Shown here piece after piece: positions 1 through 8,008 of a stretch of DNA of 64,000 nucleotides. The translations under genes and the position numbers were made by a program. The first letter of the stretch is position 1. The number at the start of each line of letters is the position of its first letter. The notes below the pieces were generated by a model. The model worked only from the letters and a program-made list of their open reading frames with translations, was not told the origin of the DNA and ran no database searches. This stretch comes from an uncultured Chthonomonadaceae bacterium (GTDB lineage Bacteria > Armatimonadota > Chthonomonadetes > Chthonomonadales > Chthonomonadaceae), in assembly GCA_963835065.1 (NCBI GenBank), contig CAWIEK010000049.1, forward strand, positions 480,001-544,000, in the 5' to 3' direction.

Positions 1-894
1 TTGCTGCGTTAATTGTGCTTCGCGCTGCCGGGCTTGTTCCAGGTCAGACTGGAGAAGCGCGGCTTTCGCATCATTTTCTGTTGCCTGCCTGACGCGCGCC
101 TCATCCCGCGCCTCCATCTGCCTGCGCAGGGGCAACAAAAACCCGATTATCAGTACGCCTGCCGCAAACGCCGCCCCCACTCCGAAGGAGACGAGGGAAT
201 TCGGCGCGAGAGTAAAGTTCGGCAGCCATTTCGCGCGCCGGCGCTGCCAACCTGTTTCTGCTATGGGTTCTTTGCCGGAAAGTGGCGCGTCATTGTTCGG
301 CGGCGCGTCCGCTTTTGGAAGCGCGGCAGGCGCGGCGTCCGGGACAGGCAGCGGGGGAGCGGGCGCAGTAACAGGCGGCGCAAGCGGCGGCGCGAAGGCA
401 GTTGAACCGGCCAGGGATTGAAACACCTTCTCGGCATCCGTGTGGAGTTCCCGCAATTCCCGCGCGTCCCGGCGGCACAAATGGCACTCCTGTAGATGGG
501 TCTCGACTCGCGTTTTATCGGGCGCGCTGAGTTCATCGGCAGCGTAGCGAGAAAGGTCTTCCTGCGCGATACACCCCCAATCCTCTTCCTGCCAACTGTC
601 TTCCGCTCCCTGCGCTTGCCTCCATTCCTCTGCCGCCCGCTCCGTCTCCTCCCACTCGCTTTCCGGCTTCGCGCTGTCCTTCCATTTCGCTTCCTGCACT
701 TCGCTTTCCGTTCGGGCAAACAACTGCAGGAGTTGCGCTTCGACGGCAGGCGCTTGAGAATGCAGAGCGCGGCGGCATTGCTCACATTCGCTCAGGTGCG
801 CGTTTGCGGCTTCGGCAAAGGGAGCAGGATGCCGCGCATGGCCGAGGATACGGTCAATTTCTGCGGGTGTCAGATGTGGATTGGTTTCATTCAT
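1..894 (-). CDS. Membrane anti-sigma factor with two zf-HC2 (ZAS) zinc fingers; 3' end runs off the window
   Basis: Hand translation from ATG at 894 (not in ORF track, no stop in window): MNETNPHLT...AHLSECEQC...CIAQEDLSRYAADELSAPDKTRVETHLQECHLC, then Pro-rich linker, TM helix (VSFGVGAAFAAGVLIIGFLL) and coiled coil. Directly downstream of the sigma gene. Confidence 0.8.
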   Translation of the reverse strand, partial: MNETNPHLTPAEIDRILGHARHPAPFAEAANAHLSECEQCRRALHSQAPAVEAQLLQLFARTESEVQEAKWKDSAKPESEWEETERAAEEWRQAQGAEDSWQEEDWGCIAQEDLSRYAADELSAPDKTRVETHLQECHLCRRDARELRELHTDAEKVFQSLAGSTAFAPPLAPPVTAPAPPLPVPDAAPAALPKADAPPNNDAPLSGKEPIAETGWQRRRAKWLPNFTLAPNSLVSFGVGAAFAAGVLIIGFLLPLRRQMEARDEARVRQATENDAKAALLQSDLEQARQREAQLTQQ

Positions 895-970: not shown

Positions 971-996
971 GTTGGTGAGTTTCTATAATTCTTACA
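971..996 (-). promoter_or_regulatory. Putative ECF-type promoter TGTAAG-N13-CACCAAC upstream of the anti-sigma gene
   Basis: Minus strand reads TGTAAG aattatagaaact CACCAAC; the same two half-sites recur at 6048-6074. Confidence 0.55.
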
Positions 997-1021
997 TCAG
1001 AATGCCTGACAGCATGCGAAC

Positions 1022-2053
1022 TTACAACAGGGGTGGCTCACCAAGCCGCTTCCTTATCTGTTCCAGATAGTAGCAGCGCATGCGATGCACTGCGCCGGCC
1101 GTTTTCCCATAGCGAAGGGCCATTTCTTTATCCGGCAGCGGAAGGCGGTTCCAAATTGCCTGCATTGCATCAGGATCAATTTCCAATGCGGCGGCAACGG
1201 AGTCGCAGGGATTCTTTGAGGTTACAAAAGATTTGAGTTCCTCGCGGTCCCGCGCCAGCAGAATATAGGCGCGGAACGGCATAGGTACGCTGCAAATTGC
1301 CTGCCAGCAGGGTTCCCAATTCCATATAGTCTTCGGCTCTTCCGGCGCGGTAAGCCATTTCTCCGTATCCCTGTTCTCATTCTCGCCCGGTTCCGGTAAT
1401 GCAACGGTGACAAGCGGCAATTCCGCGCGCAGTTTCACCAGATGCGCAGCTAATGTATCTTCCTCCAGCGGCGTTTGTACCCATTCTAAAAGTTTTACCA
1501 ACAGTTCCGATAAGCTGACCTGCTTATAATTTGCCGGATGGCGTCCCTGTAAGGCTTCCTGTACAAATGTCGTATCGTCGTCGCGAAACGCGCTATATCG
1601 CCGCGTTTCCCGAAAATCCTCATGTTGCCAGTTGGCGAAGCCGACCAGCCATTTTTTCTTGATCTGCCAGCGCGCCAGAAGGGTGTTCAGCGGCGGCTGC
1701 CGTAATCTGTCGCGCACATCGCGTTCCATGCGGCCTTCCGGGGAATTCCGTCGAAATTCTTCATCAAGGAGACGGTCTACAATTGTTGCCGCCAATCCCA
1801 AAACGTTCGTAACCGGAGTCTTATTGTCGCGGTATCTTCTCAATTGGTTAAGGATTCTAAAACGCGCTGTCTGACACATATCTTCGGCATCGGTACGCGA
1901 AAACCCCTCCGCCGCTATACTTCGACGGATGAGTGGAGCAAGGTCGCCAAGAAGCGTTTCTTCCAGACGCTTAGACGCCTGCAAATCTATGGCAGCCGTC
2001 GCATAGTATTCCTCAAGCAGACCTGCCAATCGTTGGAGTTTCTCTGAATCCAT
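1022..2053 (-). CDS. Expanded ECF-like sigma-70 family factor
   Basis: Sigma2-like segment DAEDMCQTARFRILNQLRR and C-terminal HTH-like segment LPDKEMALRYGKTAGAVHRMR. Likely start MDSEK at 2053; the longer ORF reads through a palindromic element. Confidence 0.7.
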   Translation of the reverse strand: MDSEKLQRLAGLLEEYYATAAIDLQASKRLEETLLGDLAPLIRRSIAAEGFSRTDAEDMCQTARFRILNQLRRYRDNKTPVTNVLGLAATIVDRLLDEEFRRNSPEGRMERDVRDRLRQPPLNTLLARWQIKKKWLVGFANWQHEDFRETRRYSAFRDDDTTFVQEALQGRHPANYKQVSLSELLVKLLEWVQTPLEEDTLAAHLVKLRAELPLVTVALPEPGENENRDTEKWLTAPEEPKTIWNWEPCWQAICSVPMPFRAYILLARDREELKSFVTSKNPCDSVAAALEIDPDAMQAIWNRLPLPDKEMALRYGKTAGAVHRMRCYYLEQIRKRLGEPPLL

Positions 2054-2080
2054 GCCTTCTCCGCGCCATCGCCACATTTT

Positions 2081-2280
2081 GCCGGGTATTTTCAACGCTT
2101 GCTGTGAACTACTGGCCGTGTGGTTTACCGGGGGTTGAAAACCCCTGTCTGGACAAAGCAAGCGTCTTTCAGACGCGCCCAGGCTTTCGGGAAGTTGCGT
2201 CTGGAAGACGCTTGCACTTTCCTGCCGGGGATTTTCAATCCCCGGCCAGTATTTCACAGCAAGCGTTGAAAATACCCGGC
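2081..2280. mobile_element. 200-bp MITE/REP-like palindromic element
   Basis: 37-bp terminal inverted repeats (gccgggtattttcaacgcttgctgtgaa(c/a)tactggcc, 1 mismatch) with nested internal hairpins. Confidence 0.75.
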
Positions 2281-2285
2281 TACAC

Positions 2286-5200
2286 TCATTTCCAATCGCC
2301 AACCATCTGGAACGCCGCCCAATAGTAGGGATGCTGCCAAAAATGTTTTTGGTCATGCATTACCGCGATTTGCGCCCGCTGCAGCGCGACATCTTTGCTT
2401 GCTCCCGCTTTGTACTCGGTGTAGAAGCGTTTCATCAAGGCGTTGGCGCTGTTGGCGTCCACCTGCCATAAACTCACGCCCACGCTGCGCGCGCCCGCAT
2501 ACTGGAAGGCCCGCGTCAGTCCTACGACGCCCTCAAATTGCGTTTGTTTCCCCAACCCCGTTTCGCAGGCGGAAAGCATGACCAGATCGGCGGGCAAATG
2601 CAGGCGCAGAATATCCGCAGCGGTCAGCAGGCCCTTATCCGCGCCGTCCGAACGGAGTACGAGGGCGGAAGAAAGCGGGTCGCCATTTACCAGCAGGCCG
2701 TGACAGGCCAGATGCACAATAGTGGCCTGCCTCCCCTGCTGTCGCAGCGGCACACTGGTGGCCTGCTTGCCGGTATACGCTTCCACGCGATTGCCGTACA
2801 GGTTTTTCAAATCCGTAATCTGCTGCGTGATTTGCGGGACGAACGGCAGATGCAGGTTGTTTTGCTCCGAAGCCGGGACGGCCAGCGCGAGGATTTTCCC
2901 GGAGTGGGAAACCTGTATCTGACGCAGTTCGCGGTACAGGCTCAGGGAGGCAATCACGTGCAGGGGTTTGGCCTCTATCAAATGCGTGACCGGTTTGGGC
3001 TTTGCCGAATGTCCGACCGGCTTGTCCGGTGGAGAGGTGACCAGAGCGGCAAAGGGAAGCATATTCAGAACGCCGTCGGGACACAGCAGCAGGCGGTCAG
3101 AAGCGGCAATCTCCTTCTGCGCGGGCGCGACCAGTTGCTGATAAAGCAGGCGGGCGATAGGTTGGTAACTGCCGTTCGTTAGCAGCGCCCCGCGCAAATT
3201 CCGAACTTCCCGGCCAAGCGTTTCCTCGCCGATAGCAAGCGGAATGACGCGAACCTCGGTTTTGTTGGTCACGACAAACAGGTAGCTTTGTTTCTCGCCA
3301 AGCGCATACGCCAGCAGCAGGGTTCCCTCGTTCAGTGTCTGCTGCGCTTCCGCAAACGTCAGCGGTTTGGGATAGTGCAAGCCCGCGTAATGCGGCGAGG
3401 TCTGGCGAACGGTTGTTTCCAATTCGCGCTGCTTCGCATCCAGCGCTTGAATCTTGTCGCGCAGTTCATTGGCTTCAGCCTGTTGCGAATTGGCAGCCGC
3501 CGCAAGTAATTTTCGCGCTAACTCGCTGCGTTGCTGGGTGATTTGCCGCTGTTCCGCCAACTCCGGGGGCGCATCCGGCAGGGGAAGCGTGGAGGCCGAT
3601 GGTTCCCGTTCGCTGATCAGGTCTACAAGGCTGCGGGCGCGGGCGCGTTCCAGCGTTTCAAACGCGCCTTCCTTCTGGTTCAGGGCGATTTGCGCCTGCA
3701 TCATTCCCAAAAAAGGAACGGAATAATGTTCCAGCAGAAACGCGCGGTTTTCGGGGTTGGCAAGCTGCCCGCGCCGCGCTTCCACAATGTTCACGGCGTG
3801 GTCAAATTGCTTCAAGGCGTCTTCATTCTTGTGCTGTTCCAGCAACGTATAGCCCAAACAACCCCGTGAGTAAGCTTCCTCCAGAGAGTCAGGAGCGAAT
3901 TTCAGCGTCAGGTCGAGCATCTGCTGAAAGTGGCTTTGCGCGTTGTTGAAGTCTTCCTGCCGCGCCTCAACATACCCAAGCAGGGCATAGCTTTCTATCA
4001 GACTCGCAGAAGCGGGGGAGGAGCGTTGTCGAATTGTCAGCAACTCCTGCGCGTACTGCCGCGCCGGTTTCCAGTGCCCTTGTTGGACGGCTGCCAGGCT
4101 CAGACCTTCCAGCAAGACAGCCCTTTCCGCCGGGTTGGAAGTATTTTTCAGTAAAACAGCCGCTTTCTGAGCGTATCCTTGCGCGTCCGACAAAGCGCTC
4201 TGTAGAATTGCGACCCCATCCAGAAGGCGCAAAACCGTCGCTGTTTCAGAAAGCGGCGAACCACAATTCTTACAAATGGCGAGAGCGCGTTTATAGTAAC
4301 CTTTCGCCTGTGGTAAATCTCCTTCATTAAGCGCGACGATTCCCAGTGTATCCAGGGAAGCACACATATCAAGGGGATAAGGCTTTTGCTTCTCATAAAT
4401 ATCAAGCGCCATCTGCGCGTACTTCCGCGCGTCGTCTAATTTATACTGTGGCAAGGCAAGAATTCCAAGTTGTGCGTAACAAGTCGCTTCCTCTTGTGTG
4501 CCGGGAAGAATTTTGTGGCGGATAGCCAGCGCTTCCCACATATATTCTTCCGCCTTCAGAAAATTTCCTGAACCACTCTCAACTAAGCCCAGGTGTACAA
4601 GAATATCCGCATGAACAGGAGAGCCGGGCATCTTCTTGCGGGCCAGGGAAAGCGCTTCTTCAAGATAGGGGCGCGCATGGCTGAAGTCTTCCTGCATCAG
4701 TGCGACGTGTCCCATGTTGTCAAGTATCACCAGCATTGTTTCGGGTCGAAGTTTTCTCGACGATAAATAACCAGCGCCTGACGCGAATACTCCATTCCCT
4801 GTGGTAAGCGGTTCTGGTTGAAAGCTGCAACTGCCAAATCAGCATAAAAACGATGGCAATATCCAACGAATCGGGCGCATGTTTTTGTAAAATGGCAAGC
4901 GCCGCCTCATAGTTTTTTTGCGCCTGCTGTATAATTGCCCTGCCCATCGTCGGCTCTGCCCAAGCCGTCAGAGCGCGTCTGCGGTCTGCCACGAAACAGC
5001 AGCCTGCGTCCGGCAGCGGGCAAGCGCCTGTTCATAAAGTTTACGCGCTTCCTTCCAATCCTGACGCACAATGGCAATGTGTGCTTGTTGCTCATGTCTT
5101 CGGCTTCCCAAAAAACGTTCCGGTTGGCGGCGTCCAAGTTGCCGCGCCTGCTCATACCATGTCAAAGGCTCCCGGTAGATCGTTTTGATATTCCCGCGCC

Positions 5201-5862
5201 TCGCCCAATGCAAACAGAATGCTTCTTTGTGCGGCGGCATCATCTCCCGTTTTCTCCACATTCTTCCAGGCGCGTTCCTGCCATGTCTGCACCTGTTTCC
5301 AGTCACTCCGAAGACGGTACATTTCGCCTGTTCGCCAGCACAGCCAGCCAGCCCCAGCAATATTGCCCGCCTTTTCCAGCGCTTCAATGGCGCTCTGCCA
5401 GGAAACCACGCCCTCTTCCATATGCCCGTTTGCAATATTTGTCAGTCCGGCGTCATACAAAGCTTGCAACGGAGCCGGCCATTGCGGACGAACGCGCACG
5501 TCCGACGCTTTGTCCGGCGAAAGTATTCCCGGCAATGGTACCGGCAAATGACCATCAGGGGCTGATTTGCCCGCAAGCCTTTAAGCGTGATGGCGGACCC
5601 GGACGCATTTTCCCGCGCCGCTACAAAATCAAACGCGGAGCGCAAAGGACGCGCGCCGCACCACTGCAACACATCGCCGACATGCAAACCGGCTTTTTCC
5701 GCAGAGGAACCCGGCGCAACCGCTTCCACACACCCCGGACGGCTGCGCATCATTCGGCGTTTGCGCCTGCCTGTAATTTGCAGACGCGGACTTGAACATC
5801 AGGCGGGAACCACCGACACACAGGACTACAACGACAACAAGGATACGTGAGGAAAACCGCAT
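2286..5862 (-). CDS. PDZ-TPR-CHAT (caspase-like) protease with N-terminal hydrophobic segment; N-terminal third frameshifted
   Basis: CHAT catalytic motifs IVHLACHG and LVMLSACETG, terminal HPYYWAAF; many TPRs; PDZ-like VEAVAPGSSAEKAGLHVGDVL; start MRFSSRILVVVVVLC after RBS GAAGGAAGG. Fragments in several frames between 4720 and 5862. Confidence 0.85.
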
Positions 5863-6047
5863 GAGAAACCTTCCTTCGATATTCTTCCCTGCGAACGTGA
5901 AAAAGCGCGTGGATATGCGAGCATTGAATAGACCTCTATATTCAATGCCCCTTACCTGTCTGTAAATTTTGCTTCGATAGTACAAATACCTGCTTCCTGA
6001 AAAACAAAAGATGAGGGAAAAAATTATTGAAAAATTTCTGGTAGTGT

Positions 6048-6074
6048 TGTAAGCCAGGCAAATTTTACACCAAC
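6048..6074 (+). promoter_or_regulatory. Putative ECF-type promoter TGTAAG-N14-CACCAAC upstream of the PEP-CTERM gene
   Basis: TGTAAG ccaggcaaatttta CACCAAC; matches the motif at 971-996. Confidence 0.55.
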
Positions 6075-6190
6075 TATGGAGACAAGAGCGGCGCAGGGTT
6101 TCGACAAGCCCAAGTTTTGGCCTCTTATGCCACTTTCAAGCCTGTATGGGTTGTGACGCTGGTACTTTCACTTCAGAAAGAGAATTTCTT

Positions 6191-7116
6191 ATGTACAAAA
6201 ACACGTTTAAGTCTCTGCGGCCTTTGTTTCCGGCAACGTTACTCGCTTGTTTATCTCTATGTGCCTCTACGGCACACGCGCAATTCTTAATTCGTATCGG
6301 TGACGCCGATGGCTTCGGCTACCAATCGGCTCCCGGATTCAGGGCGGCAAACGGTGGGCCGGCCAACCGTGACGGCTTGGGCATCCTTGGCAACAGGGAT
6401 TTCCTTCCCGACATCAATCGAGACGGCCAGACCGCGAGCGGCAGGGGAGATGATTTTGACCTGCGTACCGCCAACGAGATTGCTAACACCGCACTCACTG
6501 GCGGCTTTGGCGTGACCAATACCACGGGTACGCTTGGCTCGAAATTCACCGATATTTCTCTTTCGACAAGCTATGACACCAGCAGCGCAGCCAAAAGTGT
6601 CCTGATTGGCGGCAACCCGAACACAGGCTTAATTCGGGGCGCAGGCGGCGCTTTTCCGTCGCCTCCAGCGTCTTCCCTGCCTAATCAGCCGGGTTTCGTG
6701 TTCCACTTCAATGTGGATAAAACGGCTTTAAGTTCTTCGAGTTCGATTTTCTTCAATCTCGTCTTCGGCGACTATGATGTGACACGGCGGATATTCAGCT
6801 TACGGAGGCAGACAACACAACGCGCATCCTCAGTTTGGTGCAGCAGGACACAACCTCTGATGGCTTGATTCAAGCAGCCACCGCGAACCTCACCTTCGGA
6901 GACGTATTTACCGACGGCGGCTCAGTATGGATCGGGTCTCTAAAAGTGGACTTCATTGCCCCGAATGAACCCTACACTGCGTTTGACTACGTGGAGTTAA
7001 GTACCACTCCACTGGTTGCCGTACCCGAACCCGGCACAATCGCCCTGCTTCTGGCAGGTGGATTGAGTGGCACGGGATGGCTGATGCGCCGCAGACGGGC
7101 TAAACAAGTCGGGTAA
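6191..7116 (+). CDS. PEP-CTERM surface protein (frameshift near 6785)
   Basis: Signal peptide ending STAHA; C-terminal VPEPGTIALLLAGGLSGTGWLMRRRR sorting signal in the second frame. Confidence 0.85.
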
Positions 7117-7162: not shown

Positions 7163-8008
7163 ACCCTCAACCCCGGCCCTTCTCCCTGATTCCCGAACTG
7201 CGTTCGGAGGGAGAAGGGAGCGAGTGTCATACCTTTACCTGACCAGTGGAAGATGGACGTGTTGTAAAGATTATAATCAACGGACACAGGCTGTGCCTTC
7301 GCTCCCTTCTCCCTGCGACGAAGGAGCGAATCAGGGAGAAGGGCCGGGGTTGAGGGTACCATCTTCCGGTTGCAAACGCGCACAGGTCTGCGCAATCACA
7401 ATCAGGACACCTTCCAGATTGTCGCGCACATCGGCGTTGGTAACGCGCAGAGTATGGTAGCCGTGCAAATGCAGCCAGTCGTCGCGGGCGGCGTCACGCT
7501 CGACGGTTCCGTTGTGCGAACTGCCGTCCACTTCCACGAGCAGGCGTAACTCCGCGCAGTAGAAGTCGGCAATATACCTGTCCAGAACCACCTGACGGCG
7601 AAACTTGTGCCCGTCGCACTTCCGGTCACGCAAATACGCCCACAACCGCGCTTCCATAGGAGTCATTTCGCGGCGAAATTGGCGGGCGCGTTCCGTCAGT
7701 TGCGGACGGATACGCAGGCGTTTCTCTTGGGGCATACGTTCGTTTCCTTTCCGGGGCGGGATTGCAATGGCGATTGCTTCGACAGCGGCGTGGATGGTTC
7801 CTGCCAGGTTGTACCCTCAACCCCGGCCCTTCTCCCTGATTCGCTCCTTCGTCGCAGGGAGAAGGGAGCGAGTGTGGTAGCTTTACCTGTTGAACGTGAA
7901 GTGGGCGCATTCGTAAATCTTGTAGCTCACGCACTCACCTTCCGCCTTCGCTCCCTTCTCCCTCCGAACGCAGTTCGGGAATCAGGGAGAAGGGCCGGGG
8001 TTGAGGGT
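7163..8008. repeat. Four ~60-bp REP-like palindromes in two inverted pairs (7163-7222 +, 7300-7357 -, 7813-7870 +, 7949-8008 -)
   Basis: Core accctcaaccccggcccttctccctgatt-loop-agggagaagggagcg repeated four times. Confidence 0.9.
7331..7735 (-). CDS. DUF559 / Vsr-like endonuclease
   Basis: RARQFRREMTPMEARLW...FRRQ...YIADFYC...LLVEVDGSSH motif pattern. Confidence 0.85.
   Translation of the reverse strand: MPQEKRLRIRPQLTERARQFRREMTPMEARLWAYLRDRKCDGHKFRRQVVLDRYIADFYCAELRLLVEVDGSSHNGTVERDAARDDWLHLHGYHTLRVTNADVRDNLEGVLIVIAQTCARLQPEDGTLNPGPSP

Follow-up and report, generated by a model that had tools for sequence, protein, structure and literature searches.

Overview of the locus

The locus described here lies at the start of a 64,000-nucleotide stretch of DNA (the window) from an uncultured Chthonomonadaceae bacterium (GenBank assembly GCA_963835065.1, contig CAWIEK010000049.1, positions 480,001 to 544,000 of the forward strand; genome G000), where a gene for an extracytoplasmic function (ECF)-like sigma factor is flanked on one side by a putative anti-sigma gene and on the other by a gene for a CHAT protease, beyond which a gene for a PEP-CTERM surface protein runs in the opposite direction. 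Two copies of a single bipartite motif, TGTAAG and CAAC separated by 16 or 17 bp, face the anti-sigma gene (site 1) and the PEP-CTERM gene (site 2), and sequence comparison indicates that both are probably promoters recognised by the neighbouring sigma factor. In window coordinates, the features are as follows.

1..894, minus strand: putative anti-sigma factor with two HxxxCxxC zinc-finger repeats, a Pro-rich linker and one transmembrane (TM) helix (residues 234-252)
971..996, minus strand: site 1, predicted anti-sigma promoter, with -35 TGTAAG at 996-991, a 16-bp spacer and -10 CAAC at 974-971
1001..1026, minus strand: tandem copy 30 bp upstream of site 1 (TGTAAG-N16-CATT), which shares positions with the stop codon of the sigma gene
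1022..2053, minus strand: ECF-like sigma factor of 343 residues, with sigma2 (1-104), an insert of ~135 residues and sigma4 (241-340)
2286..5862, minus strand: PDZ-TPR-CHAT caspase-like protease gene, with CHAT (E 4.6e-67), PDZ and TPR matches
6048..6074, plus strand: site 2, predicted promoter of the divergent output gene, with -35 TGTAAG at 6048-6053, a 17-bp spacer and CAAC at 6071-6074
6075..6107, plus strand: conserved leader block 3' of site 2, at which similarity to the orthologous locus of genome G002 ends; boundary of the swapped output cassette
6191..7116, plus strand: PEP-CTERM surface protein, the predicted output, ~305 residues (TIGR02595 31.5 bits, cut-off 16)

Two matching sites are conserved in an orthologous locus

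A first-pass annotation, made from the letters of the window, had reported TGTAAG-N13-CACCAAC at 996-971 (minus strand) and TGTAAG-N14-CACCAAC at 6048-6074 (plus strand) as identical half-sites facing their genes from about 80 and 120 bp. These coordinates and orientations are borne out, with 77 bp separating site 1 from the anti-sigma ATG (894) and 117 bp separating site 2 from the PEP-CTERM ATG (6191). Within the window the two sites are the only matches to the long motif, for which 0.01 would be expected, a figure that overstates the significance because the words were chosen after being seen. The whole 8.0-Mb genome likewise contains exactly two exact matches, both at this locus, with spacers of 8-19 allowed, and the motif itself is confirmed as real. 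A look-elsewhere null, in which any two-word pair shared by the two intergenic regions counts (3,000 shuffles per setting), gave for G000 alone a P of 0.089 when each word had at least 4 nt, 0.067 at 5 nt or more and 0.038 at 6 nt or more; when the columns conserved in G002 were also required, P was 6/3000 and 1/3000 shuffles (6/3000 with the true conservation mask kept).

The sigma factor of G002 is 59% identical to that of the window, and both sites are present at the orthologous locus, as TGTAAG-N13-CGCCAAC before the anti-sigma gene and TGTAAG-N14-CACCAAC in the divergent gap. The pattern TGTAAG-N13/14-CRCCAAC occurs exactly twice in each of the two genomes, at orthologous places, and seven times in the other 40 family genomes, never twice on one contig. 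Because site 1 of G002 has CGC where the window has CAC, the leading CAC of CACCAAC belongs to the spacer, and the comparison gives -35 TGTAAG, 16 or 17 bp and -10 CAAC as the proper reading; of the half-sites first drawn, TGTAAG stands and CACCAAC shrinks to CAAC. The 1-nt difference between the spacers had been put down to a possible homopolymer error, but it is real, since G002 retains each site's own spacer (in the original wording, 13 nt before the anti-sigma gene and 14 nt in the divergent gap). In addition, a short-read contig (run X1) spans 940-1113 with 0 differences and 0 gaps. In a second read alignment, pieces span site 2 free of gaps, a result given no weight here because it does not extend to their letters. 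Between the two genomes, site 1 has kept its half-sites and its spacer has diverged; at site 2 the spacer is conserved as well (12/14), which makes it the less sharp footprint. In a scan of four loci, no Rfam covariance model matched with an E-value of 1 or less.

Identity to G002 drops from 73% to 38% about 35 nt beyond site 2, which in G002 is followed by a small secreted Gly/Pro-repeat peptide and then by an NHL-repeat protein with a PEP-CTERM tail, 27/29 residues of which are identical to the tail of the window protein. In G002, a secreted gene other than the annotated PEP-CTERM output therefore comes first after site 2. Judging from the alignment, the promoter and sorting tail have been kept and the cargo exchanged between the two genomes.

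The exchange spans window 6107-7020 against L020:7090-5620 in G002, with an unnamed domain in the former and the NHL-repeat protein in the latter. The G002 peptide (L020:6973-6644, minus strand; ~109 residues) combines a signal-like N-terminus with Gly/Pro repeats of the PGTGG type; a search of G000 with the low-complexity filter on gave no match to it, and it might serve the system as a signal or ligand. No third ortholog for which DNA is available turned up among 41 family genomes, 400 phylum genomes and a GTDB scan, and the two loci returned by a metagenome scan were discarded as spurious 21-residue matches. One further protein (P0003) is 51% identical to the window sigma factor.

An ECF-like sigma factor with a large insert

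The AlphaFold model of the sigma factor has a mean predicted local distance difference test score (pLDDT) of 82.6. In this model, residues 1-104 resemble sigma2 of SigC (Z 11.2, root-mean-square deviation (rmsd) 2.4, 88 aligned), SigW (Z 11.0) and CnrH (Z 10.7), and residues 241-340 resemble region 4 of E. coli sigmaE (Z 7.6, rmsd 2.2, 66 aligned); Arg326 is present in 149/149 relatives. The insert of ~135 residues between the two domains has a predicted beta-hairpin after sigma2, and a search with a family profile finds a resemblance between part of it (residues ~168-212, window 1418-1550) and the N-terminal domain of RNA polymerase subunit delta (E 0.0018); a fold search with the insert gave no clear match (best Z 3.5). 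The insert sets the protein apart from the minimal two-domain ECF build with a short linker, and its score of 17.7 bits lies below the TIGR02937 cut-off of 42.9, although 70/72 of its relatives match that model at E up to 1.

With an E-value limit of 1e-30 the family comprises 1,368 clusters, and it is present in 70/401 genomes of the phylum. No description of the family or of its promoter was found in the literature searched, outside which most subscription papers fell. Neither was the family found in the part of the PMC7826278 supplement that was searched, and another ECF group description in that supplement could cover it.

A related element recurs between sigma and anti-sigma genes across the family

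Among 63 distinct sigma loci, a zinc-finger gene follows the sigma gene in 47, and in 42 of these the gap between the two is at least 25 bp. With the window, G002 and G038 held out, 39 sigma-to-anti-sigma gaps entered a de novo two-block search (200 starts on the real data and 60 per shuffle, with spacers 15 and 17 penalised by 1.5 bits), which returned the consensus GG(C/T)AAT-N16-CGTCT with a total of 529, against 329-354 in 12 shuffles. Under that penalty the spacer was 16 in 35/39 gaps. Sites of at least 10 bits are present in 29/39 gaps (in-sample), compared with 2/39 on the antisense strand, 4/39 at each wrong spacer pair and 1/37 upstream of sigma. A matrix built from the 21 non-f23 loci recovers 16/18 f23 loci, against 2 antisense, a check that is only partly independent because its 21 picks came from the joint search. 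The elements vary with the clade of the local sigma factor, and the five f7 loci and L092, in which no zinc-finger gene follows the sigma gene, show no site of at least 9 bits after sigma.

In the held-out test, site 1 ranked first of 504 windows in G002 and second of 432 in G000, behind the tandem copy, and site 2 is the best family-matrix window on its strand of the divergent gap in G000 and the second best in G002. The sister sigma gene of G038 (Shimodaira-Hasegawa approximate likelihood-ratio test 99, quick tree) is followed by TGTAAG-N16-CGTCT, which also overlaps the sigma stop codon and is, by its letters, intermediate between the family element and the motif of the window clade.

The G038 pair (L021:11356-14037) is followed by a NACHT-domain gene in place of a CHAT gene, and other family pairs precede Ser/Thr kinase-like genes (L030) or genes that by eye resemble caspase-family peptidases (L029, L164).

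Residue 98 of sigma and the second base of the -10 element

Glu98 of the window sigma factor is the equivalent of RpoE Asn84, in a register set via a canonical ECF sigma factor of the same genome. When the residue at this position was compared with the second base of the -10 element (-12) across 41 rows, Asp accompanied G in 26 and A in one, Ser or Thr accompanied G in five and A in none, and Glu, Gln, Arg, Ala or Tyr accompanied G in two and A in seven. In the mutagenesis of Dataset S3 of PMC7776599, Asp gives 0.62 for CG and 0.09 for CA. The change from CG to CA appears to track the change from Asp to Glu, which the published mutagenesis allows; this fits the model without proving it.

Additional copies, paralogs and the size of the regulon

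Exact extra copies of a locus's own motif, at spacer 16 or 17, number 12 where 3.1 are expected (P 1e-4), as counted over 33 anchor-site loci with the window, L020 and the doubtful L024 and L032 left out and with the expectation taken from other spacers. At one locus (L151, genome G221), GGTAAG-N17-CGTC follows the sigma gene and two copies of GGTAAG-N16-CGTC precede divergent genes with PEP-CTERM-type tails, and at another (L148, genome G001; sigma, anti-sigma and TPR-CHAT genes) TGTAAG-N16-CGTC precedes both the anti-sigma gene and a divergent secreted cluster. Copies at L105, L107 and L112 precede genes with signal-like starts, with one L107 copy lying inside an open reading frame (ORF). 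On these comparisons the two-site layout recurs in relatives, and so does the use of both spacer lengths, 16 and 17 bp, at a single locus.

Two paralogs in G000 itself carry TGTAAG-N16-CGTCT (contig C59) and GGTAGC-N16-CGTCT (C49:319k). The former (L149:8916-12267) is a long sigma gene with an internal stop, and an ORF that by eye resembles an insertion sequence transposase lies between its site and an anti-sigma-like gene, which suggests a decaying system. In the latter, a third paralog (L024:9130; C49 near 319.1 kb), GGTAGC-N16-CGTCT lies upstream of sigma itself, and the anti-sigma gene, which overlaps sigma, carries a fused transporter-like domain.

A genome-wide PEP-CTERM regulon was not found. 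The enrichment before PEP-CTERM genes that the annotation had proposed as a check failed to appear, with an exact site at 1 of 67 PEP-CTERM-like pattern hits in G000, some of these hits being false; five others have one-mismatch sites 578-2,386 bp before the tail. For the minimal form TGTAAG-N16/17-CAAC the G000 count is 10, which falls in the range of 2-11 per spacer observed at other spacers. The regulon therefore looks locus-sized on these counts.

Proposed mechanism and alternative explanations

The proposal that the motif is the sigma factor's promoter, serving both the anti-sigma gene and a divergent output, gains support from the conservation of both sites in the ortholog, the recurrent family element, the intermediate motif in the sister lineage and the same two-site layout at paralogous loci. 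In such a circuit, the sigma factor would transcribe its own anti-sigma gene from site 1, providing negative feedback, and the divergent surface-protein cassette from site 2. The zinc-finger, single-TM anti-sigma factor would hold sigma until the exported PDZ-TPR-CHAT protease cuts the anti-sigma outer domain, a step that we regard as evenly poised and that is proposed from the parallel with DdvA, Csx29/Csx30 and DegS/RseA (PMC11506125, PMC10028731). Since no TGTAAG at the locus faces the CHAT-sigma operon, sigma would not amplify itself; GGTAAG-N16-GGTCT at 5956 (11.2 bits) was considered as an autoregulatory candidate and rejected, not being conserved in G002. As new anti-sigma accumulates, output would shut off. 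The change of the -10 element from CGTC to CAAC would insulate the system from the same-genome paralog with TGTAAG-N16-CGTC, given that C59 and C49:319k both use CGTCT.

A number of observations weigh against this interpretation. The coincidence of the two motifs within G000 alone is weak evidence, given the look-elsewhere P of 0.04-0.09, and the CAAC form is confined to two genomes, G000 and G002. Site 1 scores low on the family matrix (3.3 bits in G000 and 6.7 bits in G002), 35/72 family loci have no site of at least 9 bits within 340 bp after sigma4 (some of these have overlapping genes or no anti-sigma gene next), a pyrimidine-purine start signal accompanies only 13/39 family sites, and the family counts include kin and are not independent. 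The sigma4.2 helix is identical at only 6/13 positions between G000 and G002 though the -35 element is identical; elsewhere in the family, very different sigma4.2 helices accompany near-identical -35 elements. G000 carries 57 sigma70_r2 matches, which are possible alternative readers of the sites. As for the -10 element, Dataset S3 of PMC7776599 gives Glu 0.35 for CA and 0.33 for CG, with a large standard deviation (0.26 for the Glu preference, about 0.25 over the Asp and Glu values); when phylogeny is considered, five independent pairs remain, 4.4 in the same direction and 0.0 in the opposite one (median p 0.125, not significant), and mutual information places column 98 no higher than 4th among 337. 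PMC7776599 ties A at -11 to acidic residues at the Lys56 position, whereas the equivalent here is the basic Arg66, so that the A at -11 is left unexplained. The HetZ insert helps to read and unwind the -10 element (PMC13342950), and by analogy the insert could loosen the -10 rules here. The CHAT gene is present in only 39/73 family loci (fetched DNA), and the protease step would thus not be universal.

The abundance of possible readers leads to the alternative that the sites are real promoters read by another sigma factor of G000, such as the C59 paralog, which has TGTAAG-N16-CGTC before its own anti-sigma gene. This would accommodate the shared -35 element and the poorly conserved sigma4.2 helix of the local protein, but in the C59 sigma factor the residue equivalent to Asn84 is Asp (CG type) and there is an internal stop, the long motif is confined to this locus in the two genomes that have this sigma factor and does not occur in G001, which is without it, and the family elements follow the clade of the local sigma factor; we therefore consider it unlikely. 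The resemblance might instead be coincidental, with site 1 a housekeeping extended -10 element (TG-n-AAGAAT) and site 2 either a transcription factor dyad (TGTAA-N12-TTACA) or the -10 element of the CHAT operon (TAAAAT). Conservation of TGATGTAAGAAT in G000 and G002, conservation at site 2 of the dyad, of the minus-strand TAnnnT and of the spacer (12/14), and the single-genome P of 0.04-0.09 are all consistent with such a coincidence. However, no TTGACA-N16-18-TATAAT lies over either site in G000 or G002, in a scan outside which extended -10 elements without a -35 fall, site 1 has no dyad, and coincidence would not account for CAAC standing at 16 or 17 bp in each of the four copies or for the matching position of the family element, which makes this reading quite improbable.

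The upstream tandem copy at 1026-1001 is possibly a second or ancestral promoter. That it is the working anti-sigma promoter, with site 1 secondary or the relic of a 30-bp duplication, strikes us as very improbable: it overlaps the sigma stop codon like the sister-clade site, has T at -11, keeps 14/16 of its spacer and is the top family-matrix window of the G000 gap (5.0 bits against 3.3 for site 1), but in G002 it retains TGTAAG with a -10 of CGCT and scores 2.4 bits against 6.7 for site 1, and CAAC is common to sites 1 and 2 and absent from it. Recognition of both sites by the neighbouring sigma factor remains the reading that we consider likely.

Relation to known systems and significance

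HetF is a CHAT protease. By its predicted logic, the locus is an ECF/anti-sigma-type switch closest to sigma-HetZ and DdvS and apparently a member of neither. Group 4 ECF systems (RpoE- and SigW-type; PMC7776599) share the sigma2 and sigma4 folds, an adjacent zf-HC2 single-TM partner, a bipartite site of 16-17 bp and an Asn84 equivalent that tracks the -13/-12 bases. The locus departs from them in its ~135-residue insert, its sub-cut-off TIGR02937 score, the two zinc-finger repeats of the partner and A at -11, and in the element lying after sigma and before anti-sigma (29/39) rather than upstream of sigma (1/37).

Sigma-HetZ is also an ECF-type factor with insertions that include a beta-hairpin after sigma2; its motifs are 16-17 bp apart, and it activates the operon of its own inhibitor PatU3, a HetF protease substrate (PMC13342950, PMC9457339). 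HetZ reads TCCGGA-N16-17-TGNA (PMC13342950), a consensus from which TGTAAG/CAAC differs. Further differences are that the partner here is a zinc-finger membrane protein and that the regulon looks locus-sized, against 546 HetZ peaks. No HetZ match appeared among the 25 of 66 NCBIfam families listed or among the PDB matches. DdvS-DdvA of Myxococcus xanthus (PMC11506125) also combines an ECF sigma factor with a zinc-binding single-TM anti-sigma factor and an extracytoplasmic TPR-CHAT with a His-Cys dyad, a proposed site-1 protease. In DdvA, TPR-CHAT is fused to the anti-sigma factor, whereas here the two are separate genes on either side of sigma, and the output of DdvS is a CBASS-CRISPR island, as opposed to the surface protein predicted here.

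In the type III-E CRISPR system CASP-sigma/Csx30/Csx29 (PMC10028731), a TPR-CHAT protein relieves an anti-sigma factor, as is proposed here, and motifs lie inside the sigma factor's own locus. Csx29 is cytoplasmic and RNA-activated, whereas the protease encoded here starts with a signal-like segment and includes a PDZ domain; its NF041237 score of 24.4 bits is far from the cut-off of 300 for the Csx29 type. Neither Cas7-11 nor a CRISPR array was seen among the ORFs from about -15 kb to +20 kb, where no search aimed at them was made. ECF54 sigma factors are also encoded near a TPR-CHAT gene, but are 100% actinobacterial and proposed to be anti-sigma-free (PMC8999054, PMC7826278), whereas this locus has a putative anti-sigma gene.

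On a wider view, which we offer tentatively and hold to be rather doubtful, the locus may belong to a large, undescribed ECF-like class with a beta-hairpin and a delta-like domain, released by a separate exported (PDZ-)TPR-CHAT protease. The class would be pulse-wired, with sigma driving the anti-sigma gene, not itself, and a swappable surface or secreted cassette, and its same-genome paralogs would be insulated by single-residue code changes (TGTAAG/CAAC, TGTAAG/CGTC, GGTAGC/CGTC). TPR-CHAT proteases are widespread, yet most of what is known of their outputs concerns CRISPR-linked and heterocyst systems. The analysis provides an explicit candidate promoter code, GG(C/T)AAT-N16-CGTC with clade variants, for a 1,368-cluster family below the curated ECF cut-off, and names its likely outputs, namely the anti-sigma factor itself and exported or PEP-CTERM proteins. 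It suggests a route to the control of single PEP-CTERM genes in the phylum and new orthogonal sigma-promoter pairs; the surprise is limited, since ECF promoters adjoining their own sigma gene are ordinary.

Neighbouring genes and repeats

The anti-sigma gene, which is frameshifted in the assembly, matches zf-HC2 over the cut-off (E 3.9e-6) and extends ~765 bp past the window edge, into an Fn3-like and TPR part; DUF928, considered for its C-terminus, was not seen in Pfam. The CHAT gene has a hydrophobic, signal-like N-terminus, a His679/Cys724 dyad in an 816-residue C-terminal ORF and several frame breaks, and a single frameshift, near 6785, interrupts the PEP-CTERM gene. In G002 the breaks in the CHAT and anti-sigma genes fall elsewhere, which suggests assembly errors. 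The PEP-CTERM protein has 119 homologs (median 298 residues), 86 of them with a terminal sorting tail. Its cargo (window 6191-6790) is a domain that has no name and belongs to no Pfam family; 192 homologs reach E 0.001 or better, and the named ones come from, among others, a planctomycete, a gammaproteobacterium and an archaeon.

The gap from the CHAT stop to the sigma start contains a palindromic repeat of ~200 bp (window 2086-2285), which is high-copy in run X2 and has no counterpart in G002, where the gap is ~20 bp; it may affect read-through into sigma. Downstream of the PEP-CTERM gene, a DUF559 gene (7735-7331) lies between further palindromic repeats (7165-7370 and 7814-8000), and the same repeat type comes after the G002 gene as well. 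On the other side, a cytochrome P450-like gene follows the anti-sigma gene in G000 (L001, ~840-2250 bp past the left window edge) and in G002, each time on the anti-sigma strand, so that site 1 may drive its transcription as well.

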